Shown here: in pieces, positions 1,720-38,867 of the stretch
Layout of the letters: each line of letters begins with the position of its first letter
Numbering within the stretch: the first letter of the stretch is position 1
IMG/VR virus record: IMGVR_UViG_3300043410_000597
Strand: one strand, 5' to 3'
DNA length: 64,000 bases
Source: an uncultured virus (IMG/VR IMGVR_UViG_3300043410_000597)
Taxonomy: Duplodnaviria; Heunggongvirae; Uroviricota; Caudoviricetes; Crassvirales
Made by a program: the position numbers and the translations under genes
Notes under the pieces: generated by a model
The model's database searches: none
Told to the model about the DNA's origin: nothing
Seen by the model: only the letters and a program-made list of their open reading frames with translations

Positions 1720-4700
1720 ATGATAGAACTTCAAAGAAATTTCCTTTCGGGGGTCATGAATAAAGATCTTGACCCTCACTTTTTACCTGATGGTGCGTAT
1801 AGAGATGCACTCAATATTATTGTGGGCGATTCTGATGGAACATTTGTTTCTGAAGAAGGCTCACATAATGGGGTAGCACAAAATTATTTAGGTAACGTAT
1901 TAAAGGGAACGGACTACGAGTTAACCAATGCAATGTGTATTGGTTCTTTGGCTTACGAGACTAACAATTGTATTTATTGGCTAGTAACTTCTGATGAACA
2001 AGATGCAATATATGAGTATAATGAGACATTAGATTTAAAAACTACTGTATTAATATCTGTTCGAGGGTTAGATGGTAAAACTCAATTGAATTTCAATAAA
2101 GAGTTTTTTGTTACAGGCATAAACTATATTAATGGGTTACTTTTTTGGACTGATAATTTAAACCCTCCACGTAGAATCAATATTGATCGTGCAAAGAACT
2201 ATCCAATTGACCCATTAACAGGAAGTAGTATTTTTACGGAAGCTGACATCAATGTTATCTTAGCTCCTCCATTGTCTGCTCCAACAATTAATTTATATTC
2301 ACAGGGTGAAGCTAACAACTTAGAGAATAAATTTTTATACTTTTCTTACAGATATAAATATTTAGACAACGAGTATAGTGCTCTATCTCCATTCTCACCT
2401 GTAGCATTCTTTCCAAAAGAATATGCATACGATTATGGTGTATCAGAGAACGTATCTATGGTTAACAACTTTAACACAGCAGATATAACTTTCAACTCTG
2501 GCCCTAAAACTGTAAAAGAGATTCAGTTGGTTTTTAGAGACACATTAAGTACTAATACTTATGTAATTGATAATTTGATTAAAGAGGCAAATGGATATGC
2601 TGATAATACGGAATATTCTTTTCAATTTAAAAACAATAAAGTATTTACATTATTGCCAATTGAGCAAGTAAATAGATTGTTTGATAATGTGCCTATTAAG
2701 GCTAAATCACAAGAATTAATTGGAAGTAGATTAGTATATGGCAATTATACTCAGTTTTTTGATTTACTGAAGGATAACTACGAGCCTATTAATCCTGATT
2801 TCTCGGTATCTCTATTATCTAACTCTGTAGTAAGTGGAACGCCTACTCCTACATTTAAGAGTAATAGAGATTATGAAATTGGTATTGTTTACTTAGATGA
2901 CTACGGCAGAACAACTACTGTAATTACTCCAACAGATAATACCAATACAATTTACATACCTCCTGCTAATGCTGTTGATGCGAATAATATTCGTATCACA
3001 ATTGATGGTACTTATCAGCCACCATCTTTTGCTACACATTATCGTTTTATGATTAAGCAAGATAAGCAGGATTATTACAATGTATTCCCATTAACTTATT
3101 TCAAGGACGGTCAGTTTAAGTGGTTTTTGATTAATCAAGCAGACCAAGATAAAATATCCGTTGGGTCTTATGTTTATTTAAAGGGAGAGTCATCTAACAC
3201 TAATATTCAATATAAGATATTAGACATTCAATCGAAGTCAGCTAACTTCTTAAACACGTCAAATGTTGATCAGCCAGCTGGTATATATTTTAAAATAAAA
3301 ATAGAGGACACTGTTCTGCCTCCTGTTACGTATTATACAGATTCTAATGCAGGTGGATTAAGTACATTAGCTCCTGTTGATTTTAGATTTGATGTTGCTG
3401 AGAATGCTATATTCTATGGTCGTGGATTAAATGATATGACCACTGGCAATTCTAATATATTTACAGGTACTAATGATATTAGATTCTATGTACAAATAGA
3501 TAGTGTAGGCGTAACAGATACCTTTAAATATTATGCTACTTATGATGGTACATATAAAGTTCTTGTTGCTAGTAACCAAGCTATAACAGCTGGTGTAGAC
3601 CAAACACTAACATATTCTGGACAAAGTTGTGATATTAATTTTGCTGCAAACACAGGGCATAGATTAGACGACTATTGGGTTGTTAACTGTAGAAGTGATT
3701 TAGGTAAGAATATTTTTGGTGGAGATACTTATGGTCCCGACCCAACATATTATGCACTTACAACTCCAACTTTCTTTACATTTGACAATTGGAGTGTTAG
3801 TCCAAGCAATGATGAAGATAGACCAATTAAAGCTGGTGCTGTATTGACATTTAAGTACAAGGAAACAAATGGAACTGACCAATGGATAAGTCAAACATTT
3901 ATTTCTACGAAAGACTATGTTAATATAGAAGAATGGTTTATTGAGGATTCTGCATATCAAAAATGGTCTCAACTAGATGATGCAAACCAAAGTATTGGAC
4001 CTAAACTTATTACCTTCAGAAGAGGTTATATTATATCTACCGCAAGACCTGGTACAATTGACCAAGGAAGTGTTATAAGTTCGACTACATTAGCTTACCC
4101 TGTGTATATGTATATGTTTACAGCACAAGGGGGTACTAATCCTGCAACAGATACTGTATTGACTCTTCAGCAATCTGAAAAGCCATCTTTATTTGAAACA
4201 GTTCCAACTGACACCAACCAAGATATATACTATGAGCTTTCACAAACGTATCCTATTATCGATGGCAATCACTATGGAAATGTTGACAATCAGGACATTG
4301 CATTGGGTGCTCCGGCGATAATAGACTTAAATACGCTTGATTTCAACTCTGACTTTAATGCGTTTACATTTGGTAATGGAGTAGAAAGTTTTAGAATTAG
4401 AGATGACTGGAACTCAGCAACAATGCAATATAGTCCACGTGCTAATTCAACTATCGAAGGATATGAACAACAAACACTTGTTCAGGCACTAACTTATAGT
4501 GGTATATATACTCAAACATCTGCAATTAATAGATTGAATGAGTTCAACCTATCACTTGGTAACTTTAAGTATTTAGATAGATTCTTTGGGTCTATTCAAA
4601 AATTATTCTCTCGTGATACAGATTTAATTGTTCTTCAAGAGAATAAGATATCTAAAGTGCTTTATGGTAAAAACCTATTGAGTGATTCAGTTGGTGGTGG

Positions 4701-5859
4701 TGTAGTAGCATCTATTCCTGAGGTATTGGGTACTCAGATTTCTTACGAAGGTGAATATGGTATTAGTTTAAACCCTGAAAGTTTTACTAAATGGGGTAAC
4801 GATTTATTCTTTACCGATGCTAGACGTGGTGCTGTTATGGCATTACAACCTAATGGATTATTTGAGATATCTTCTCAAGGAATGAAGAACTGGTTCAAAG
4901 CAAACCTAGATACTAATACGGTAAAACTAGGTATGTTTGATCCATACTTTGAGCATTATGTTTTGGCGTTAGATAATGATAGACAAATTAAAACTTGCTC
5001 ATTATCTGTAACACCTACATCTTTATCATTTGATGGTTTAGCTCAGAGCAAAACATTCTACATAGAATCTAATTCTGATTGGGAGATAACTGTTCCGACT
5101 AATACTTGGATTACATTAAGTGACAGATTTGGCTCTAATAATCAATTGATTACAGTTACAGTTACAGAAAACACAACAACTGCTAGAGACTTAGATATAA
5201 CAATAAGTAGTTGTGCTGACGATGTTGTATTAAATATTAGCCAAACTGTTTTATACGATTGGTATGAGTTGTTAGATTGCGACACATCTGAAACATCTTA
5301 TAGTATTCAATATGCAGCAGGAACCTATGAACTTAATGATCGTGTTACTTTTGGTGATGCAACATTTAATATTGTAGATGTATTACACGAAGAACCTGTT
5401 GGGGTATTAATAGATGTTGAATCTACAGGGCTTCAGGGATGTCCTACTCCAGCTGCTTTTTGGTATCAGTTATTTAATTGTTTTGACAGCTCTACTGCTA
5501 ATTCACAAAGTTATGCACCAGGTGTATTTAATATAGATGATAGGGTTACATCAGGAGGATCAACATATGTTATTACAGGGGAGATAGAATATAACCCTGG
5601 TGGAACATTATTAGCAATTACGCCTACAGGAGAAACAGGGTGTGAGACATTGACTACTTATTATGAGTTATCAGAATGTTCTCCTGGAACAGGATATGCT
5701 TTCACTACAATTGTACCTGGATCTGTTGGAAGGAGATATGTATTACCATATCCAACTGAAACATTCTATACTTATACAGGATCAACATTAACACAAAGCA
5801 CTGTTCCTCCTGGATATAATGGTTCAATTCAAATAACATCGTTCTATAGTTGTCCGTAA
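1720..5859 (+). CDS. Tail stabilization/nozzle protein (P22 gp10-like), N-terminal part, with C-terminal BACON domain and Cys-containing repeats
   Basis: Motifs GVMNKDLDP..YRDALNI, LLFWTDNLNPPRRINI, FDNVPIKAKSQELIGSRLVYGNY, FKSNRDYEIGIVYLDDYGR, GEYGISLNPESF; BACON-like LSVTPTSLSF..IESNSDWEIT..WITLS near 5000-5240. Confidence 0.75.
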   Translation: MIELQRNFLSGVMNKDLDPHFLPDGAYRDALNIIVGDSDGTFVSEEGSHNGVAQNYLGNVLKGTDYELTNAMCIGSLAYETNNCIYWLVTSDEQDAIYEYNETLDLKTTVLISVRGLDGKTQLNFNKEFFVTGINYINGLLFWTDNLNPPRRINIDRAKNYPIDPLTGSSIFTEADINVILAPPLSAPTINLYSQGEANNLENKFLYFSYRYKYLDNEYSALSPFSPVAFFPKEYAYDYGVSENVSMVNNFNTADITFNSGPKTVKEIQLVFRDTLSTNTYVIDNLIKEANGYADNTEYSFQFKNNKVFTLLPIEQVNRLFDNVPIKAKSQELIGSRLVYGNYTQFFDLLKDNYEPINPDFSVSLLSNSVVSGTPTPTFKSNRDYEIGIVYLDDYGRTTTVITPTDNTNTIYIPPANAVDANNIRITIDGTYQPPSFATHYRFMIKQDKQDYYNVFPLTYFKDGQFKWFLINQADQDKISVGSYVYLKGESSNTNIQYKILDIQSKSANFLNTSNVDQPAGIYFKIKIEDTVLPPVTYYTDSNAGGLSTLAPVDFRFDVAENAIFYGRGLNDMTTGNSNIFTGTNDIRFYVQIDSVGVTDTFKYYATYDGTYKVLVASNQAITAGVDQTLTYSGQSCDINFAANTGHRLDDYWVVNCRSDLGKNIFGGDTYGPDPTYYALTTPTFFTFDNWSVSPSNDEDRPIKAGAVLTFKYKETNGTDQWISQTFISTKDYVNIEEWFIEDSAYQKWSQLDDANQSIGPKLITFRRGYIISTARPGTIDQGSVISSTTLAYPVYMYMFTAQGGTNPATDTVLTLQQSEKPSLFETVPTDTNQDIYYELSQTYPIIDGNHYGNVDNQDIALGAPAIIDLNTLDFNSDFNAFTFGNGVESFRIRDDWNSATMQYSPRANSTIEGYEQQTLVQALTYSGIYTQTSAINRLNEFNLSLGNFKYLDRFFGSIQKLFSRDTDLIVLQENKISKVLYGKNLLSDSVGGGVVASIPEVLGTQISYEGEYGISLNPESFTKWGNDLFFTDARRGAVMALQPNGLFEISSQGMKNWFKANLDTNTVKLGMFDPYFEHYVLALDNDRQIKTCSLSVTPTSLSFDGLAQSKTFYIESNSDWEITVPTNTWITLSDRFGSNNQLITVTVTENTTTARDLDITISSCADDVVLNISQTVLYDWYELLDCDTSETSYSIQYAAGTYELNDRVTFGDATFNIVDVLHEEPVGVLIDVESTGLQGCPTPAAFWYQLFNCFDSSTANSQSYAPGVFNIDDRVTSGGSTYVITGEIEYNPGGTLLAITPTGETGCETLTTYYELSECSPGTGYAFTTIVPGSVGRRYVLPYPTETFYTYTGSTLTQSTVPPGYNGSIQITSFYSCP

Positions 5860-9327: not shown

Positions 9328-12300
9328 ATGGCAAAACAAAGATTAGTAAAAAAAGGTAGCCAATATGGTATCTTAGACGAAGCGTCTAACACAGTATTAC
9401 CTATTTCAGAGAATATGAAACTTGTTCAGAAGCAAGGGCAATATGGTATTTTAGATGGCGATTCTGTTATTCCTATTGATAACTTCTCAGAGAGTATTAC
9501 TGAGTCGGACTTAGATATATTAAAAAAAAAAAATTCTACGGAATCCGTTGGTCAACCAGCTCCAAAACCTACTTCATCGGTATCTCCAAAGATTCAAGGG
9601 AGTGGACTTGTGGCTTCTCCTGCAAAAGCAGGTAAAGAAGAGGTTGGTGTTATTGATGACCTTTGGAATTCATTTAAAGGAGCTGGTGCTAAAGCATTAG
9701 CTTCTATTGCTGCTGTACCTCAGTTTGCACAAAATGCTGCTATAGATATTATGTCTAGTGTAACCGGACGCTCTAGTGATTTCAATAAATTACCATCGAA
9801 TGTCAAGAAGCAAGTAAGAGATGCAATAGCAGGATCTCTTAGTGCAGCCACACCTACAGGTCGCTTTGCACAAGCATCTCAAGAAGCTACAGATTATCTT
9901 AATAAAAAATCTGAAGACATCTACAAGAAGACTCGCCAAGAGGAGGTTGATGTTATAGATGAGTTATCTAAATTTAAAGATAACCCAAATGCAGAATCCA
10001 TTCAGAAAATTCTTTACCAAGGATTAAAGACTACGGTAGAATCTATACCATATATGGCTATTGGTGCCGTTAGTTTACCTGCAATGGGAGTTACGGCTGC
10101 TGCAGCTAAAAGAGCTGAAGATGTAATAAAAGAAGGGAATGTTGGCATAGGTCAACTATTAAATGCTGGAGTTACTGGTGCGGCTGAAGCTGTATTTGAA
10201 GGCACAACTCAAAAGATTTTAGGTAAAGCAGCTAAGGCTGCATTAGGAAATCCTACTGCATCTAAAGCAGTTGCTGAAGGATTTGTTAAGTCTATCTTTA
10301 AAGATTTTGGTCAAGAAGGGGCTTCTGAAGGAGCCACAACTTTAATTCAAGAGTTATCAGACAAGATAACAAAAGGTGAAGAAATTAAATTTTGGGATTT
10401 AGCTAAGAAGGTTGGCAATAGTGCTATTCTAGGTGGACTTTCAGGAGGAGGCATATCAGCTACAGGAGCTGGTGTTGGTGCAGCAAGAAGATATGTAGCA
10501 GGCAAAATTATGCCTAAAGAGCAAATAGAAAAGATAGACAATAATATTAAGACTATTCAAAGTCTAAATCTTGAGCACGGAGAAGATGTTGACCCTCGTG
10601 TTAATGAGATTGTCAATAAAAAAATAGATGAATTATTAGCAGAGAATGAAGCTATTGTTTTTGAAAATGAAAAGATTGCTGAAAATTTATCTGCGGATCA
10701 GGTAAAAGAAATATTTGACATTGACGATAAATTAGAAGAAAACTATAATAGTGCAAAGTCTATTATTGACGATGCGGCTATGGATGATAACGCAAAGAAG
10801 TTATTATTAGATGATTTATTAAAACAACAAAATAACCTTAAACAACAAAAAGATGCCATTCAAAAGCAAGCAACAAGTCAAATATCTGTACAGCCAGAAA
10901 CCGGAATTAGCGGAGAAGTGGCGAAAGGAGAACCCCAAGCAGAACCTCAAGTCCCTGCCGAAGAAGATAAAAGGGAAGAAATAGAAAGAAGAAGAAAAGA
11001 GGAGTTGCAAAATAGAGTCGTATACGACAGAAAACCAACTATAGAAGATGGAGAATTTAAGTTAGTAGGCGACCCTAATAATATTATTTATAGAATTAAT
11101 GAATTTACTGGAAAACTTGAGCGAAAAGATACTGAAACTGGACTGTGGACAAAATCAGGTACACACGGAAAGCTTGAATTAGAATCAGCACAAAGAACCG
11201 GTTTTGAAAAACTAAAAGAAAATATTAATTCTAAATACGATGCAGAATTAGCAGCATTAGAACAACCTATAGAAGAAGTTAAAGTCGAAGAAGTAACAAC
11301 TCCTTCTGAAACAATTGAAGTATTTCATGGTGGAGATTTACCTTCATTAGAAGAAGGTAGACCTTTGTACGTATCAGAAGATGCTAGTCAAGCGAACGAG
11401 TATGCAAAGATGTCTGGTGGAGAAGTGTCAAAATTCTTTTTAGACAAAAATAAAATAGCTAGCGAACAAGAGGCTTTCGATATAATGGAAGAATTGGGGC
11501 TAGATTCATTTGGAAATTTCTTTGAACTTATTGATCCTAGATTTGATGAGGCATTTTCTGAAGAAGACATAAAGAGGGTTTTTGACACATTAAAAGAAAG
11601 AGGATTTGAGGCGGTAAGATATACTGATATTGATCAAAAAGATTTAAAGTCAGGTATTGAAAACATACTAGTTCTTGATGCCTCTAAATCACTTAAAACA
11701 GAACCAACTTCTGCCACAGAGGTTAAAGAAGAAGTAGTAGTTACACCTCAACAAAAGGCAGAACAAGTTACTGCAGTTAAAAAAGGAATTGATGCTGTTA
11801 ATAAAGCTGTGGAGCGTGGTAGACCTTTAAAGAAAGCTGTCGAAGGTGGTATTGCATTTATGCAAAAAACAATTGCCTATGAACAAGCGGATGACGTTAC
11901 TCGTGAGCAAATGCTTCGTGACATCAATAAGAAGTTTGGTGTAAAAGAAAAGAAGGCTCCATCTGTTAAAAAGGTAATGGGTGAAACTACTCAAAAGAAA
12001 GTTACAGTCAATGAAATGACTGCACTTAAAGACCAAATAAAACTTGAATCTAAAGCAGCTAAAGGATCCGAGAAAGCTACTGACCAAATCAGAAAAGATG
12101 TAGTAGAAAAGGTTAAATCTTTTATTACTAGAGGTGGATTAAGTAAAGCCCAACAAAAGTCTTTATTAAGCTCTTTAGCTAAAACTAACATCTTAAACCC
12201 TGTAATGCGTGAGCGTTTATTTGAACGTATGCAAAAGATGTTCAAGCGTGCTGACTATCAGGATAGAATTAAGGAGGCAACTACTTTTAGAAATAAAATC

Positions 12301-15201
12301 AAAAAGTTAGCCAAGTCAGATACGTTGCAGGCATCTGTTGCTAACATGGCTAGGGATTTTGGTAAAGTGATACCAGAGTTTACAGATGTTGACCAATATC
12401 TAGAAAAAGCTAGAGAGGTGTATGGTGCTATTAAAAAACCAATTAGAGCAGCTGCTCTTATTGAGGATATCAATGCATTCACAAAGAAAGAGTTAGCTAA
12501 ACAAGAAGAGAAGGTAAAGAATACTTTACTTGACCAATACGATTATCTAGCTGAAGCTGGATTAATAGATGAGTCTATGAGTTTAGCTCAAATACAACAA
12601 TATGTAATGGATGTAGAATCAGGTACTAAACCTGATGCAACTGTTAATGAAGCTAAGATTAGAGAAAACTTGGGTGAATTGTTTGATTCAATGTCTGATA
12701 TCGTAGATTCAATTGTCAACGAAGAATACAATCCACTTACAGGAGAAGAAGTTGAATTAGATAATTACACAAAAAATCTAATTAAGAACTTCACTAGTAT
12801 GGATTTGAATGATATGTCTGTTAGAGACTCATACAGAGCTGTGGAGGCATTAGAAAACTTCTTAGTTAATGGCATTGTTGATAATATGGAAACAATGTAC
12901 AAGACTTATGAAGGTGCAGAGAAGGCAACAGGATTAGCTAATCAAGGCATAGTAGCAGAAAGTTTCAGAAGAGTCTTTGGAGGTAAGGGAATGAACTTCT
13001 TGTCTCAGGCTTGGACATCTGCATTCTCGCCTGTTAAATCTACATTGGATTTAGTTCACAGAAGTCGTGCTGTTGGATCAAAAGTTTTTGATGCAATGGG
13101 TCTTCGTGATTTATCAAATCAATCAAGTAGAGCTAAAACAGAAGCTAATAATATAGATAAGGCTTACAATGAGAAATTTGGGAAGAAAAAACCAAACAAC
13201 AAGGATTTTAATGATGTAGAGAATGTATTCGAAAGAGGTATCTATGCACATTTAAGAAGAAATGTTGTGGGTACGGCTGAGGAAATGAAAGTTGAATTTG
13301 ACAGACGTAAAAATCAAATTGTTGAAACCATTGATGCTTTATTAAAATCTCAAGATGACAAGTTAGTAAAAAGAGGTAAGATTATTGACTCAATATTTGA
13401 GAATATAAAAGATGCTGAAGATATCAGTCAGGTTGAATCATACATAGACCCAATTAATCAGGATGCGGTTAAGTGGTGGAATGCTATTTTTGATAAATAC
13501 TATCCTGAGGTAAAGCAGATTGCAGCATCTGTTTACAATACTATATTGGAAGATGATATTAATTATTCTACTGATAACTATGAAAATATTGTAGAAGACA
13601 AATCTAAGGATGTTAATGAGCCTTCTTCATATAGAATGGGATTTGATTTCTTAAATCAATCTAAATCAGGCACATTAATGAAGAATAATCGTATCAAAGG
13701 TATTCCTCAGAATCGTGTAATAAGTTTTGATTTTGATTACAATAACTCTTCTGCATTTCACAAAATGCTTACAGATGTAAGAACTGCACCTTCTGTTCAA
13801 CAATACAGAGGATTTGTTCAGTCTCCTGCATTTGAAAAGATTTATCCAAATGTTAGAGAAAGAAATGTAATTCAAAATAAATTAAACTATTATGTAAACG
13901 AGGTTCGCTCTAAAAATGTAGCTACTGGTTCTGTTAACGAAAAGGCTTTTGCTAAAGTTATCCAAGCAGTTAGTAGATACGGAACATCTCGTGCTTTAGG
14001 TGGTGCTTTATCAGGTCTCAAACAAGCATCAACAGCCCTTGTTAACACAGCTGTTTCATTGATGAATGATCCTAAGTCATTTGGCAAAGGTGTGTCTTTA
14101 TTAACTAATAAAGATGCAATGGACTTCTTGAATAATTCAGGATATGGTATTGCTAATCGTGGTTTAGAATCACAGACAGCCATTGAATCTGCAAATAAGA
14201 TTATTGAGCAAACAGATGTTAACTCAGCTAATAAGGTAGCGGAAACTGTAGCAAAGGCAGGTAAGATATATCTAGAATACTCACTTAAGAATGGTGACGT
14301 TTTAGGAGCTAGAGCATCTTGGATGGCATATTATGTTCATAAGTTGAAGCAACTTGGATACAACACAGATAATATTGATTGGAAAAATCACAAGTTAGTT
14401 AAAGAAGCTGGTGATTACGCAGAAGACCAAATCAATTTACAACAAAACGTATCTGATGCGGCAATGATGGGTAAGTTCCTGACAACTAAGAATCCATATG
14501 CAACTATTGCTAGATCAATGGTGATACCATTTAGTAGTTTTATTTTCAATGCTAAAGATAAAATAACTACAGATGTAACTATTCTTACATCTAAGAATTC
14601 TAACAAGCAAGATAAAATTGATGCATTAAAATCATTAACGGCAACTGGTGCTGAGATGGTTGCTTTTGAAGCAATGTCTGCTGCTATTAGTTCTGGAATT
14701 GTTATTGCGGCAAATTCAATACTTGGTATCGATGAGGACGAAGATGAAAAAGAGAAAAGAAGAAATCAGTATATAAATTCTGCATTCACTAGATTTACTA
14801 CTGATGTATTATCACCAATACCTAATATCGGAGATAAAGCAGTAGTTGGAATCATGAATGGTTTATTGGATTTAGCCCAAACTGATTTGGATGAAGAAGA
14901 TAAGTTTAAGTTATTTTCATACAAACCTGAAAGTGAATTAGATGCTATGTTGAATCTAATAGGAGGTATCCCAGAAGTGGCTACTAAACCTTTCATAAAC
15001 ATGGGTGATACTATATATAAAATATCTAGTGATAGCTATGTTGATAAATTTGGCAACGAGATAGAGTTATCTAATGAAGACAAGCAAAAACTAGGATTAG
15101 TATTGGCTGTGGAATTACTGGGAGCAAGTAATATTTTGCCTTCTGAAGTTGTAAGACTAAATGAAAAAGTAAAACAGACGATAGAAAAAGAAGCTAAATA
15201 A
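9328..15201 (+). CDS. Giant internal virion/ejection protein with ADP-ribosyltransferase-like insert
   Basis: 1957 aa; Gly/Ala-rich helical N-terminal region; VFHG..LYVSED..ANEYA..GFEAVRY..ENILVL at about 11310-11700. Confidence 0.65.
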   Translation: MAKQRLVKKGSQYGILDEASNTVLPISENMKLVQKQGQYGILDGDSVIPIDNFSESITESDLDILKKKNSTESVGQPAPKPTSSVSPKIQGSGLVASPAKAGKEEVGVIDDLWNSFKGAGAKALASIAAVPQFAQNAAIDIMSSVTGRSSDFNKLPSNVKKQVRDAIAGSLSAATPTGRFAQASQEATDYLNKKSEDIYKKTRQEEVDVIDELSKFKDNPNAESIQKILYQGLKTTVESIPYMAIGAVSLPAMGVTAAAAKRAEDVIKEGNVGIGQLLNAGVTGAAEAVFEGTTQKILGKAAKAALGNPTASKAVAEGFVKSIFKDFGQEGASEGATTLIQELSDKITKGEEIKFWDLAKKVGNSAILGGLSGGGISATGAGVGAARRYVAGKIMPKEQIEKIDNNIKTIQSLNLEHGEDVDPRVNEIVNKKIDELLAENEAIVFENEKIAENLSADQVKEIFDIDDKLEENYNSAKSIIDDAAMDDNAKKLLLDDLLKQQNNLKQQKDAIQKQATSQISVQPETGISGEVAKGEPQAEPQVPAEEDKREEIERRRKEELQNRVVYDRKPTIEDGEFKLVGDPNNIIYRINEFTGKLERKDTETGLWTKSGTHGKLELESAQRTGFEKLKENINSKYDAELAALEQPIEEVKVEEVTTPSETIEVFHGGDLPSLEEGRPLYVSEDASQANEYAKMSGGEVSKFFLDKNKIASEQEAFDIMEELGLDSFGNFFELIDPRFDEAFSEEDIKRVFDTLKERGFEAVRYTDIDQKDLKSGIENILVLDASKSLKTEPTSATEVKEEVVVTPQQKAEQVTAVKKGIDAVNKAVERGRPLKKAVEGGIAFMQKTIAYEQADDVTREQMLRDINKKFGVKEKKAPSVKKVMGETTQKKVTVNEMTALKDQIKLESKAAKGSEKATDQIRKDVVEKVKSFITRGGLSKAQQKSLLSSLAKTNILNPVMRERLFERMQKMFKRADYQDRIKEATTFRNKIKKLAKSDTLQASVANMARDFGKVIPEFTDVDQYLEKAREVYGAIKKPIRAAALIEDINAFTKKELAKQEEKVKNTLLDQYDYLAEAGLIDESMSLAQIQQYVMDVESGTKPDATVNEAKIRENLGELFDSMSDIVDSIVNEEYNPLTGEEVELDNYTKNLIKNFTSMDLNDMSVRDSYRAVEALENFLVNGIVDNMETMYKTYEGAEKATGLANQGIVAESFRRVFGGKGMNFLSQAWTSAFSPVKSTLDLVHRSRAVGSKVFDAMGLRDLSNQSSRAKTEANNIDKAYNEKFGKKKPNNKDFNDVENVFERGIYAHLRRNVVGTAEEMKVEFDRRKNQIVETIDALLKSQDDKLVKRGKIIDSIFENIKDAEDISQVESYIDPINQDAVKWWNAIFDKYYPEVKQIAASVYNTILEDDINYSTDNYENIVEDKSKDVNEPSSYRMGFDFLNQSKSGTLMKNNRIKGIPQNRVISFDFDYNNSSAFHKMLTDVRTAPSVQQYRGFVQSPAFEKIYPNVRERNVIQNKLNYYVNEVRSKNVATGSVNEKAFAKVIQAVSRYGTSRALGGALSGLKQASTALVNTAVSLMNDPKSFGKGVSLLTNKDAMDFLNNSGYGIANRGLESQTAIESANKIIEQTDVNSANKVAETVAKAGKIYLEYSLKNGDVLGARASWMAYYVHKLKQLGYNTDNIDWKNHKLVKEAGDYAEDQINLQQNVSDAAMMGKFLTTKNPYATIARSMVIPFSSFIFNAKDKITTDVTILTSKNSNKQDKIDALKSLTATGAEMVAFEAMSAAISSGIVIAANSILGIDEDEDEKEKRRNQYINSAFTRFTTDVLSPIPNIGDKAVVGIMNGLLDLAQTDLDEEDKFKLFSYKPESELDAMLNLIGGIPEVATKPFINMGDTIYKISSDSYVDKFGNEIELSNEDKQKLGLVLAVELLGASNILPSEVVRLNEKVKQTIEKEAK
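10853..10984 (+). CDS. Small basic protein nested in the +1 frame of the giant virion gene (MPFKSKQQVKYLYSQKPELAEKWRKENPKQNLKSLPKKIKGKK)
   Basis: ATG 10853 to TAG 10984 translated by hand; A-rich leader; resembles free-standing small phage proteins of the MPFKS.Q....PE.A..W type. Confidence 0.55.
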   Translation: MPFKSKQQVKYLYSQKPELAEKWRKENPKQNLKSLPKKIKGKK

Positions 15202-32364: not shown

Positions 32365-35300
32365 AGTTTAAATGAATTGTTTAATAATACATTCGTGTAA
32401 AAGTGATCCAAAGGAAGGATGTTTATATCCCACATAAATTCGCCATCAGTAATCTCGCCATCAACATCTTTGATGTAAAAGTAAATTGTCTTGCCATCCT
32501 CGTGGTGCAAGTGGTCACACCATTCAACCTCAAAGGCATAGGCTACATTGCCATCTGCTACCTCAAAAGGGGTGTTAATTTCATACTCTCCAAGCAAATT
32601 ATTTTGCTCCACTAATGACATTATTTTGTCAGTTAAGTCTGCTCTCAATTTGGAGATTGTCTCCATAGTTGTCAATTGAATTGTTAAATTTTCCATTTTA
32701 AATTAAGTTTAAATGTTAGTAAAAAAATCCTTGGTAAGGGCAGTCATCAGGGCGTTTGTTGCGCCACTTCTTACCAGGTTTAGCATATAAGTTAGGGAAT
32801 AGCGTATCAGGCTTAGGATTATAGTACAAGTCTATTGCTAGGCTTCGCATATGCTGATCACTTTCGTCGTAAAGGCTATTCATTTCGGCCATAAGGATAT
32901 AATAATCTTTGCCCCCGAATCGGCCGTAGCCCGAGTAACTAGGCTCGTGATATTGATTGCCTTTGTCGTCTACCATATAGACATCGAACGTAGGTCTGCG
33001 ACTTGCATTATTTGCAATGCTTCTTCGCGTGTCTTGTGTTTTAAAAGAAAAGAATCCCATCTTAAATTACGTTTAAGGTTAAAATTATTATTAACGTGTC
33101 ATCGCAAGCCTGCGATTTGGATTGCTATCAAATGCTTTATTGCATTCTGATTTTATATCGGCATCTAAAATGTCGCTGATACCTATCCACGTGCCAAATC
33201 TGCCACCATAGGTACTTAATCGAAGTACACCTTTGTTGTCTTTAATGTATTCGGCTACTGCTTTATGGTCATTACCAAATACCTCGTACATACTTAATGT
33301 ACCTTTTTGCCCCCACTTATCTACATCGCAAGTGGCATGAAATTCTACAAGTTTTTGTTTGATTAAATCTTGCATCTTAGATTGTATTTAGAAAGTTTAT
33401 AATAGACTGAGTTTTAGTCGTAAACTGACTGATATAATCAGTTAACGCTTCACTTACTTCGGTAAAAATTGATAATTCCAGCAGGTCAGAATCAGACCTA
33501 TTAAATACTTTTACAATAATGACCCCAGCTTCTGAGGCCACCACGTGCAGGCTATAATCACCCTGGTTTATGATTTTCCTTGCCATTATAATAATTTGAT
33601 TCTATCCGTGTCAATTCCGTGTATAATGCCAGTGCTTTGGCTTTCTACGTATACTTGCCACTCATTATACCCGTACTCATTTACGTAAACAATTTCGCCC
33701 AGTTTTAAGGGATTAGCCTCTATTTCTTCATCGTCGTAAATAAGGCCATCAATATCCAGTATTATAGCTTGTGGCCGTTCGCTTTCTTTTAGTGGCTCAA
33801 AATCGAAGCAAATGCCCTCATTACCGAAATAATAATAAACTTCGCCATCTATTGTTTCGGGTTTGATTAATACATCGTATTCATCGCCATAAATTACGCG
33901 TACGTTTTCGCCTTCCCAGTTGTAAGTATTTTCGGGATGCGATAACATTTGAATTAATTCATTCACAAAATAGTGGTGAATGTAGGGCATAGCCCAGCCG
34001 TTCCAACCGTTGTAAGGGTCAGCGTACGCGATCATATTTGTGGACGTTTCGCCCTCAAAACTTGCAATTCCTTTTAAAAACTTTTCCATTTTAATTTTGA
34101 GCCGTTTTGTGCCACGGCTCACGGGCTTTGTTCACAATCACGCGAAAGCGTGATTAATATGATACGTGAATAAAATCTACAAATTCATCTAAAAAGCATC
34201 GCTCATTTGATCGAATTAATTTATTTTTTGAATCCAGTCGCAAAGGCTGGTTACTATAATCCAAGCATTTTAATATATTATCCTTTGTAATAGGGTGGTT
34301 ACATTCTTTATTTTCCCAAAAGAAAAGCGAATTAACCTCTTTAATAATTTGAGTTTGTGGCTTTAATGAATTAAAGCAATAGGCTAGAACTTGCATAGTA
34401 TTATTTTTTTAAGTTATCCCAAAGTAAATCGTCGTCTGCAAATAACTCCACCGTAGGCCAGCCGTTATTTGCCTCTATTGATAAATTTTCTGCCGTGTCG
34501 TAAAGTGTTTCCCATTCAGACGACGAATTGTATTCGCCAGTTTGTGCCATTTTAATAGCAATTTCCTTAGCTTCACCAAAGCTATCAGCCTCAATAGAAA
34601 AAAGTTCACGGTACCAAATCGTTTTTTTAGAATCTTTGTGAAAATCAAAAGTTGCCATAGTTTTAAAATTCGGTTGACCTATGCACCGAAAGGTTTAAAG
34701 GTTGTTAGAATAATAATAAAGGCATTAGTAAACCGATTGCTTCGCTATCTTGAAAGCTTACTTTCATTCCCTTGTTTTGGCCGTAAAAACCCAGCTTCAA
34801 AGGTTTTTTTCCATTCGCTTTATATAGCGTGTCCAGTAGCTCAGGATTAATAGATATTTCTTTTAGTTCCTGATTAGGCACGTCGTCTTTATACATTACG
34901 TCGTCGCAATTAGGGAAACGCTGGCCGTAGGTTGTTTTTTCAAAAGCCTCTTTTGTTAGGGGCTTTAAAAATCCTAATGATTTAGATTTATTATCGAATA
35001 ATTCAAATAAATCGCCTTGCTTTTTGTGAAAGGCCATAGAAGCCACTTTTGCATCCTTCCAGTTTGTACCCTCGAAATACATTTCGCTTTCAAGTTCTGA
35101 TAATAGTTCAGCTGGTAGCACCTCAGAAGCTGGCGATTTTAATAATATACTGCCATTAGTAACGTAAAAATAGCCTTCACGTAGCTGAATGAATTTAAAC
35201 GCTTCGCGGTAAGATTTGGGATCGATAATTAAGTTTAATGCTTTCATTTTATTGAATTGTTTATAAGGTTGTTAAAAAAAGTATGCGACCTAGACCGCAT

Positions 35301-36006
35301 ACTCACTAATAAAATACTTGAATAGTTCTAAATAATCGAATGATTTGCGATATTGAGTGCATTGAGTTTGTGTTTTACCGCCCTCTACATTAATGCAGTT
35401 ATCTGAGTGACTCCACTCTACAAACCTTTCACGGCTTTCGATTGCACTTTCTATTTCATTTTCGTCAAATTCTTCGCTTATAAATTCTTGCAAGGCCACA
35501 CAAGCGGCCTGAGAAATGTTAGTAATTTCACCAAACTCGCTTTCTGACCAGTCGGTAAAATTCAAATCCTTACAAATGTCAAAACAATCAGAGTAATAAA
35601 TTACCGCCCTTTCTATTTCGGCGTTTTGGTACTCCCAAAAATCAGACATATCAGTGATATTTTCGTTTAAAATTTCGTTTAAAATGTCACTTTTAAAAGA
35701 CTCTAAAAATAAATACTTATTAAAATTTCCCATTTTATTTAATTGTTTATAAGGTGATTAATTATTTTCATCTAGGCACGTATCGCCAAAATATAAATCT
35801 ATTTGTGAATAGTATTTGTCTAGGTAAGCTAGTAAGCGGTCTTTTTTAGAAAAACGCTTTACTGTCTCTTTGTCACACCACGGGTTTAAATAGGTGTATT
35901 CTTTAATTATAGCAATATATCCGCCTTTGAATACTTTGCCTTTGTCTGATAATACAAGCGTATTATCACTAACTACGTTTTCTCTTAAAATGAAATTTGA
36001 AGCCAT
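32355..36006 (-). CDS. Early-gene array of hypothetical proteins (32355-32696, 32716-33060, 33091-33375, 33377-33586, 33586-34089, 34154-34396, 34401-34658, 34705-35247, 35290-35733, 35758-36006)
   Basis: Co-directional small ORFs with A-rich leaders, downstream of a full-consensus host promoter. Confidence 0.6.
35274..35303 (-). terminator. Intrinsic terminator inside the early operon
   Basis: Minus strand AGTATGCG-GTCTAGGT-CGCATACT followed by a T run. Confidence 0.7.
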
Positions 36007-37319: not shown

Positions 37320-38867
37320 ATGATAGTAAAAGACATCGTCTTCGGAGATGAAGGCAGACAGAAATTAATTAAGGGTGTTAATACAATTGCGGATGCAGTT
37401 GGGTCTACACTAGGAGCTCGTGGTCGCACGGTGCTTATTGAGTCCGAGCAACACGTTGGTGGCATCACGGTTACCAAGGATGGTGTGACGGTTGCTAAGT
37501 CAATTAACTTAATGGACCCAGCTGAGAACTTGGCGGTCATGATAATGCGAGAAGCATCTGAGAAGACAGCTAACTCGGCAGGTGATGGGACGACGACGAG
37601 TATGGTGCTGGCACAAGCCATCATCCATGCGGCTATGGACGAACTTACACCAGAAGATAATATCACACAAGTGCTACGTGATGTGCAGGCTGCAGCATTG
37701 CGTGTTGCAGATGAGCTGACTGAGATGTCAACTGAGATTACATCAGACAAGTTGGTGGACGTGGCGACTATCTCGGCCAATGGCGATGCGGAGATTGGCA
37801 AGATCATTGCTGATGCGTACAATCAAGTTGGCTTAAGTGGTGTGGTGACTGTTGGAGCATCTGAGACATCGGACACATACGCTGAGGTGGTCAGTGGTAT
37901 GAAGATAGACAGAGGTTTTGCGAGTAAGTACTTTGTGACAGACCACAAGAAGCAAGAGGCTGTGCTAGACAAGCCATATATTTTGGTGACTGACCAGCCC
38001 ATTACAAACCTTAACGACATCTTGCCTATTCTAGAGTTCATCCACCAAGGCAGACATTCATTGCTTATCATTGGGGAGCTCGATGAGAACTCACTAAACT
38101 CACTAAATGTGAACAAGATTAAGTTGGGTCTAAAAGTGAGCACTATTATTCCTCCATCATTTGGCTACAAGCGTCATCAGATTATGCAGGACATAGCTAT
38201 TGCGACAGGTGCTAAGTATTTCTCTGAGCAGACAGGTGACAATTTAATGATGGTCACTATTGACGACTGCGGACAAGCAGGCAAGGTGGTGAGCTCACGG
38301 TTCAATACCATTATCTTCGATGCTGTCGGAGCAGGGGAGGAGAGAGTTCAAGAGTTGCAAGAGCAGATAGAGGTGGAGACGCAGGCGATTGAGAAAGAAT
38401 TCTTAAAAGAACGCATCGCTAATCTTGGTGGTGGGGTGGCTATCATAAAGGTGGGTGCAAACTCAGACATTGAGCAGAAGGAGAAGAAGGACCGGGTGGA
38501 CGATGCGGTGTGTGCGGTGAGAGCAGCACTAGAAGAGGGCATCCTTCCAGGTGGAGGCGTGGCTCTGCAAGACATCGCTGTCAAGATGGAGTCAAGTAAC
38601 AAGGGTGATGACATATTAAGAGAGGCGATGGTGGCACCAATGTCCAAGATACTTGCTAACGCAGGCATCAGCCTAAATACTATCGATAGAGATCAGATAC
38701 AAAAAGAAGGGGTCGGCATAAACGTAGCAACAGGGGCATATTGCCACATGATGAGCGTTGGGATTATTGACCCAACTAAGGTGACTAAAGAAGCACTTAA
38801 GAATGCGGTGTCAGTGGCGACTACATTGCTATCCACAGAGACGGTCATAACTAACATTAGAGCATAA
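37320..38867 (+). CDS. groEL: Chaperonin GroEL (phage-encoded)
   Basis: TKDGVTVAK, GDGTTT, ISANGD, ERIANLGGGVA, GIIDPTKV; lacks the GGM tail; -7 box TAGATTTG at 37294. Confidence 0.97.
   Translation: MIVKDIVFGDEGRQKLIKGVNTIADAVGSTLGARGRTVLIESEQHVGGITVTKDGVTVAKSINLMDPAENLAVMIMREASEKTANSAGDGTTTSMVLAQAIIHAAMDELTPEDNITQVLRDVQAAALRVADELTEMSTEITSDKLVDVATISANGDAEIGKIIADAYNQVGLSGVVTVGASETSDTYAEVVSGMKIDRGFASKYFVTDHKKQEAVLDKPYILVTDQPITNLNDILPILEFIHQGRHSLLIIGELDENSLNSLNVNKIKLGLKVSTIIPPSFGYKRHQIMQDIAIATGAKYFSEQTGDNLMMVTIDDCGQAGKVVSSRFNTIIFDAVGAGEERVQELQEQIEVETQAIEKEFLKERIANLGGGVAIIKVGANSDIEQKEKKDRVDDAVCAVRAALEEGILPGGGVALQDIAVKMESSNKGDDILREAMVAPMSKILANAGISLNTIDRDQIQKEGVGINVATGAYCHMMSVGIIDPTKVTKEALKNAVSVATTLLSTETVITNIRA

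Follow-up and report, generated by a model that had tools for sequence, protein, structure and literature searches.

The window, by which we mean the whole stretch of 64,000 nucleotides that was analysed, is a phage genome carrying terminase, portal and ribonucleotide reductase genes together with a GroEL-like gene. A block of genes matching PHROG virion structural proteins is closed on the plus strand by a giant gene of 1957 codons (9328..15201), hereafter the host gene, which was delimited by its ORF and placed by the PHROG matches of its neighbours. Its product has no match in Pfam or among PDB sequences and its best PHROG E-value (0.081) is not significant; the label 'ejection protein', applied to it in an earlier sequence-only reading of this DNA, is a guess.

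Entirely within this gene and on the same strand lies a second ORF of 43 codons followed by TAG (10853..10984). It opens with an ATG at 10853..10855 and occupies the +1 frame relative to the host gene, (10853-9328) mod 3 being 1. The sequence-only reading had described a 43-aa ORF running from this ATG to this TAG inside the giant gene, and we obtained exactly the same peptide, which has a net charge of +11. That reading had also taken the main frame at this place for a low-complexity linker, and rightly so: in the host frame, the nucleotides 10852..10983 of the plus strand translate into an acidic, low-complexity segment (host residues 509-552) with a net charge of -6 over 44 residues. We call it the shadow segment. 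Ahead of the ATG, an A-rich and weakly structured stretch (10823..10852, plus strand) is the likely initiation region, as judged from its A content, its minimum free energy (MFE) and the position of the upstream stop.

Considered as a bare ORF, the nested frame is only mildly unusual, being the longest of the 71 ATG-started +1-frame ORFs in the host gene (43 aa, with a runner-up of 27 aa). Its weight comes from the comparison with relatives, in which the ORF stays intact and varies mostly at its third positions. On the strength of this comparison, we consider it very probable that the nested ORF is a genuine gene encoding a protein out of frame, at +1, inside a giant virion-module gene. Such a gene would be conserved and unannotated, and its product a predicted one.

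Conservation of the nested ORF in related phages

A word-based protein search returned 16 called proteins of 42-54 aa with 59-93% identity to the peptide. Viral contigs were then scanned with an alignment of these called relatives, yielding at least 600 matching stretches, of which 381 were confirmed and the best 80 kept. An ATG-started ORF of 36-66 aa (median 44) is intact in all 80 of these best-scoring loci, each time in the +1 frame of a longer frame. The enclosing frame spans 762-2042 codons in 76 loci, mostly cut by the locus ends, and 387-431 codons in the remaining four. Deposited phages present the same arrangement. In 'Podoviridae sp.' MW202828, the giant CDS contains a +1-frame ORF of 43 aa, and in the Flavobacterium elemoviruses a 'structural protein' CDS of 11 kb contains one of 42 aa, likewise in its +1 frame. 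In Flavobacterium phage vB_FspP_elemo, a cultured relative growing on Flavobacterium sp. BAL314, the nested copy spans 3583..3711 of locus L002. Exactly one match was counted in each of nine related genome records, on which, rather than on the window's own assembly, the copy number was determined.

Most of these loci were picked by their likeness to the peptide, which biases any comparison of the two frames. The test was therefore repeated on loci found through the N-terminal domain of the host gene. This host-anchored search gave 10 loci with 62-100% identity, two of which end before the site; the eight informative loci all keep the ORF, with 93-100% identity. These eight loci, fairly close relatives of the window, and the environmental contigs described below are the only material free of peptide-selection bias. 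No +1-frame stop interrupts the ORF in relatives, whether in the 80 best-scoring or in the eight host-anchored loci. At the DNA level, a search of the region against deposited phages gave no match, and distant homologues have protein sequence in common but not DNA.

Which frame is under selection

Across 38 ungapped codons in 75 unique module sequences, the entropy at small-frame positions 1, 2 and 3 amounts to 0.54, 0.34 and 0.95 bits, a pattern that is the signature of a coding frame. The flanks of the module rise to 1.4-1.7 bits, and conservation sets in precisely at the ATG, which is invariant in 75 of 75 sequences. Individual codons tell the same story. Over the nested start, the host residue is D, N or Y, always through an xAT codon. 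The Ser5 codon alternates between AGC and TCN, thereby changing the host residue from K/E to V/I. Phe3 of the small gene is always encoded by TTC, since with TTT the host frame would read TAA. When all pairs were compared, small-frame identity exceeded host-frame identity in 2772 of 2775, with means of 76% and 50%, respectively.

A codon alignment was built from the window and seven host-anchored loci, omitting one identical locus and the two cut ones. In sliding windows along this alignment, conservation of host third positions is 97-100% within the module, compared with 71% over the whole gene, and first positions remain variable. Site counts were obtained after dropping L089 (the same as L088 in the module) and L085 (identical to the window) and, for the upstream part, L093, whose flank is unrelated. 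With six sequences, a single one of the 39 host third positions in the module varies, compared with 382 of the 450 lying upstream (Fisher p=4e-27); for host first positions, the figures are 16 of 39 and 233 of 450 (p=0.24). In the seven-sequence set, 17 of the 21 classified variable sites alter the host residue and are silent in the small frame.

Environmental contigs from independent aquatic samples agree with these counts. Among the best-supported 40 of 123 entries for these contigs, all five differences listed in the module fall at small-frame third positions, and 25 of the 34 differences listed upstream fall at host third positions. The replacements also differ in kind between the frames, being radical in the host frame (K/E to V/I; A, T, S, G) and conservative in the small one (Y/F, K/R, L/V/I/M).

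By this comparison, selection acts mainly on the small frame. Host synonymous sites are frozen precisely over the small ORF and the ORF is intact in relatives, as the proposal of a true overlapping gene had implied. The host frame is not wholly free, for it has to stay open and some sites admit purine exchanges only. The acidic shadow segment may have a weak function of its own.

A large family of small phage proteins

A profile built on 24 family members was run against 1.84 billion representatives and matched 2448 clusters at E<=1e-3. The best-matched proteins measure 43-1075 aa, mostly less than 90 aa, and 133 of the best 150 are matched from residue 1-3 onwards. In an alignment of 91 sequences, the residues M1, P2, F3, S5, Q8, P17, A20, L35 and P36 are either invariant or conserved to at least 90%. 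The peptide belongs to a very large and unnamed family of phage small proteins and N-terminal modules that begin with MPFKS. Free-standing small proteins of this type had been mentioned in the sequence-only reading and do exist: unannotated ORFs of 36-40 aa occupy intergenic gaps in Synechococcus phage S-CBS2 and Prochlorococcus phage P-RSP2, and 50 of the best 80 loci of a broader scan (see below) are free small genes.

The PHROG group phrog_1375, of function unknown, matches the window peptide weakly (E=0.0053, 18.1 bits); among eight relatives, four match it weakly (E 5e-4 to 0.05) and four not at all. The MPFKS proteins, phrog_1375 included, share with the nested peptide the MPFKS N-terminus, Q8, P17, A20 and the L35-P36 pair, as well as a basic tail, a model with two helices and a size of some 40-60 aa. 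Unlike them, the window copy does not stand free but is nested, and in its clade the loop before the LP pair is longer by two residues. Pfam gave no match, either for the peptide (E<=1) or for the eight relatives (E<=10), and searches of NCBIfam and of PDB sequences with the peptide, its relatives and the giant protein returned nothing usable. In 28 longer family members, the sole family to pass its cut-off is DUF5661, in the tail of one of them. Pfam DUF3008 (PF11450) was considered and rejected, there being no match to its model; its sole link to the family is a feature-search lead (0.85), to a cluster in which 15% of the members carry DUF3008.

A confident AlphaFold2 model built from 91 sequences (pLDDT 86.7) has two short helices, at residues 6-15 and 17-26, and beyond them a basic tail in extended form. 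A fold search against the PDB gave no match (best E=7.4), and the nearest predicted viral structures are uncharacterised phage proteins of 44 aa.

Start region and probable initiation

The window has an A at 10 of the 15 positions preceding the ATG. The A fraction over these 15 nt is 0.60 in 74 relatives against 0.37 at 4934 other +1-frame ATGs of the same loci (p=3e-38), and the 50-nt MFE at the start is -2.2 kcal/mol for nested ATGs against -6.4 kcal/mol for the others. No core resembling a Shine-Dalgarno sequence is present ahead of the nested ATG or in ten gene leaders from the window. A +1-frame stop lies 10 codons upstream of the ATG in the window; in relatives, its distance from the ATG has a median of 4 codons, does not exceed 10 in 65 of 75 and is never more than 24, and in 74 of 75 no other in-frame ATG stands between the stop and the conserved one. 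An A-rich, unstructured leader with a stop few codons upstream fits an initiation of its own.

Another argument for initiation did not hold. The sequence-only reading had compared the string upstream of the ATG with a leader motif of early genes of this phage. The quoted string is indeed present, and its likeness to the motif is not above chance. ACCTTNNAAAC occurs twice in the window against 0.9 expected, with both matches on the minus strand, where they precede two other ORFs, and AACCTTAAAC with at most one mismatch occurs seven times against 7.2 expected. Nor is the string conserved in L093 or in more distant relatives.

Initiation independent of Shine-Dalgarno sequences is known in Bacteroidota. 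For the window, we infer a Bacteroidota-type initiation; its cultured relatives infect Flavobacterium. Ribosomes would start at ATG 10853 on the late structural mRNA, using an A-rich, unstructured leader without Shine-Dalgarno sequence, as expected if the host bacterium is of Bacteroidota type. The product would be a strongly basic 43-aa protein folding into a two-helix hairpin with a Lys-rich tail, and the host gene would need only an open frame across the module, its shadow being a disposable acidic linker. Genome bins gave 19 matches, all in metagenome bins or an uncultured-bacterium assembly and spread over many phyla, the closest (94%) being on a 3.7-kb contig binned as Chitinophagaceae. 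Since the binning of phage contigs is too unreliable, no host was named from them.

Alternative explanations

The peptide could instead be the C-terminal tail of a truncated giant protein, whose N-terminal part would end in this basic tail through a +1 ribosomal frameshift or a split gene. One family member is built in this way: in P0019 (1075 aa), an N-terminal part resembling a giant virion protein runs in frame into the peptide and ends at its stop. It is one of the best 150 profile matches and could be an assembly error; a search for the DNA of this fusion gave seven pattern matches, none of them confirmed. The other evidence speaks against such a tail. The nested ATG is invariant, and the motif sits at the very N-terminus in 133 of the same 150 matches. 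The +1-frame stop so close upstream and the unconserved stretch between the two leave no place where a conserved shift site could lie, and a programmed +1 frameshift product was rejected on these grounds. We regard a tail of either origin as highly unlikely.

The two other alternatives deny any role to the small protein at this place. In one of them, the acidic motif of the host frame would be functional, for instance as a signal for cleavage or targeting, or as a spacer signal, in proteins destined for the head, and the +1 ORF would be its accidental by-product. The motif does recur in giant genes as well as in a post-portal gene (L080 and L082), and some wobble sites of the small frame carry restricted letters. 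Host-frame selection, however, would leave third positions free and first positions constrained, the reverse of what the alignment contains; the replacements it would have to tolerate are the radical ones, and the peptide also exists free-standing, with the equivalent frame closed in 60 of the best 80 loci of the broader scan. We give this explanation very little credence. In the other, conservation would operate on the nucleotides, as a recombination anchor of mosaic giant genes or as an RNA structure, and neither peptide would matter here. The module is an island common to many otherwise unrelated contigs, with mosaic joints starting at its 3' end and upstream flanks that are unrelated among loci, which speaks for this explanation. 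Against it stand the clear three-base periodicity of variation in the small frame and the switches between Ser codon families, which keep the residue while altering three bases. Rfam gave no match (best E=0.65, off site), the fold energy resembles that of shuffled sequences (z=-0.18), and the likeness of distant homologues in protein but not in DNA points the same way. Conservation of nucleotides for their own sake seems to us extremely unlikely. A small protein-coding gene read in the +1 frame accounts for the pattern of variation, and we retain this reading in what follows.

Genomic context and the origin of nesting

A second scan, with more typical family members, gave at least 600 matches, of which 424 were confirmed and the best 80 kept. 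Among these best 80, there are 50 free small genes, 10 N-terminal modules of longer proteins, 12 copies nested at +1 within open frames that exceed 1600 codons and eight overlapping shorter open frames (six in the +1 frame, two in the other). The frame equivalent to the host frame is closed in 60 of the 80. The six +1-frame cases in shorter open frames (L120, L121, L139, L153, L165 and L166) were set aside as probable chance open frames in GC-rich DNA.

The surroundings of the free-standing copies were surveyed through 82 neighbouring proteins at 48 non-duplicate loci. A terminase, portal, scaffold or capsid gene stands at most two genes away in 14 of these loci, and 34 are without one. One locus (L106) has the order portal, small gene, scaffold, capsid; the genes around the P-RSP2 copy are hypothetical and unannotated, and none beside it can be recognised as belonging to the head or to packaging. 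Two loci, L080 and L082, have the small gene nested close to the 5' end of a 381-415-aa gene, which is situated between portal and structural-protein genes. The window lineage possesses a homologue of this L080/L082 host gene (36% identity, E=1e-42) from which the module is absent.

Resolution is poor in a tree of 140 unique 42-residue cores, which even so requires about six changes of the state 'nested in a giant gene'. Its well-supported branches force at least two such changes, and nested copies form a single group in none of 200 bootstrap trees. A captured gene whose alternative frame became the linker, as suggested in the sequence-only reading, fits with a small family far wider than the nested state, an almost free evolution of the host frame and a different host gene in a sister lineage. 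We infer that the small gene is the older of the two and became nested more than once, in different host genes. Nesting would have arisen either by insertion into the host gene or by a neighbouring gene extending over the small one.

No flanking repeats of note that would mark a cassette were found between 10650 and 11250. In environmental contigs, four mosaic joints start at the 3' end of the module, running from 10959-10984 to 11231-11317. The conserved island may therefore serve as a recombination point too.

Comparison with known overlapping genes

Phage gene overlaps of this architecture, of the type of Rz1 in Rz, are already known. Kongari et al. (2018; PMC6139136) describe lambda Rz1 as embedded in the +1 frame of Rz, with overlapped and separated layouts in other phages, and the embedded part of the larger gene as a flexible or variable segment. 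The two systems have in common a small gene lying wholly inside a larger phage gene of the same strand, in its +1 frame. They differ in the host, here a giant virion-module gene and not a lysis gene, and in the host frame, here almost unconstrained. The small family is here clearly older and far wider than its nested state, and no functional link is known between the two products. An o-spanin identity was rejected for the peptide, which is without Cys and without a hydrophobic lipoprotein signal and is Lys-rich throughout.

Overprinting in phiX174 (E in D, B in A, and K) likewise has two proteins encoded by one DNA stretch in different frames. In overprinting of this type, one frame is disordered or of low complexity and a new protein arises inside an old gene. 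The situation described here is the opposite in this respect, with an old and widespread small gene that would have been overrun by, or inserted into, a large one, and with the reading of the large gene as the novel, unconstrained one.

In the literature, a full-text search for the first six residues of the peptide retrieved no paper. Among the work listed on overlapping phage genes, titles and abstract openings contain nothing on this nested gene, and the extracts of work on the elemovirus genus contain passing mentions only.

Possible functions of the small protein

The small protein could tentatively be an accessory in assembling the head or packaging the DNA, and its basic tail might serve to bind DNA or an acidic protein of the head. 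This guess is made solely because of charge and gene neighbourhood, with free-standing copies often next to terminase, portal, scaffold and capsid genes and nested ones in genes of the head or virion module. A complex prediction of the small protein with the portal of a near-identical relative scored 0.00 in two runs, which were made without controls and count neither way.

More speculative, and in our view rather improbable as a whole, is a reading that joins out-of-frame basic cassettes in acidic linkers, a recombination anchor or fusion seam, and a binding of the peptide to its shadow. In its first part, genes for small basic microproteins may act as cassettes that repeatedly settle, out of frame every time, in disordered acidic linkers of giant virion genes and of the post-portal head gene and leave a recognisable acidic shadow in the host protein. 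The island could then be an anchor for the shuffling of giant-gene domains, or even the seam where neighbouring genes became fused into giant ones, a small gene between them having been read through in another frame. Lastly, the basic peptide and the acidic shadow, made from the same DNA, might bind each other and so tie the small protein to the host protein in the head.

Consequences for annotation and experiment

Standard gene callers never report the small gene when it is nested, though it is kept in every related phage examined, and the gene catalogues of phages with giant genes thus miss a conserved gene. The recurrent acidic linker motif of giant phage structural proteins would be the shadow of another gene and not a motif of its own, which bears on the domain annotation and the alignment of these proteins. 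The locus also offers an unusually clean natural case in which the annotated large gene would be the unconstrained reading and the hidden small gene the constrained one. With the small gene occurring free-standing, in a giant gene and in a post-portal gene, the origin of nesting is directly testable. Additionally, the small gene can be knocked out cleanly, because replacing its ATG by ACG leaves the host residue unchanged (GAT to GAC).

The 3' end of the nested gene

Directly 3' of the 43-codon nested gene (10853..10984, plus strand), approximately 250-345 bases are skipped or replaced in the environmental contigs that share this module. Against the window, these contigs display four joints within 10959-11317, each leading from 10959-10984 to 11231-11317. 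Because the skipped or replaced bases lie right after the module, the giant gene (9328..15201, plus strand) has a mosaic boundary where the nested gene ends, and an extra segment is present in the window directly after the nested gene.

Other settings of the small gene and its peptide

In two viral loci of a sister lineage (L080, 2883-4028; L082, 2817-4064), an acidic gene carries the small gene, nested close to its 5' end. This host gene is flanked by the portal gene and a gene for a virion structural protein, the location of a scaffold-like gene, and its homologue in the window's lineage is devoid of a nested small gene.

Flavobacterium phage elemoE_10-3D harbours a truncated second copy of the module (L002, 3187-3219), which precedes the full copy by about 400 bases. 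Its first six codons are identical to the module, and it is 10 codons long before its stop. The shadow motif, the acidic reading of this DNA in the host frame, is also present there with its first seven residues.

The database representative P0019 (1075 aa, no locus) has an N-terminal part resembling those of giant virion proteins, to which the small peptide is joined in frame, and the protein ends at the peptide's stop. This protein represents either a genuine variant (split or frameshifted) or a mistake in assembly.

The small peptides of MW202828 (L001, 6001-6132) and of the elemoviruses (L002, 3583-3711) each contain two cysteines that are lacking in the window's clade, a hint that one branch of the family has a disulfide or metal site.

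Other features of the window

The exact 11-mer ACCTTATAAAC occurs twice on the minus strand, at 35259-35269 and 35745-35755, in each case 11 bases before the ATG of an ORF on that strand (34705..35247 and 35290..35733, respectively); the two ORFs are neighbours. The 11-mer might serve both ORFs as a genuine leader or promoter element, but a pair of matches does not rise above chance for the window. The phage also encodes a GroEL-like chaperonin (37320-38867; phrog_5725 match, E=5e-128).
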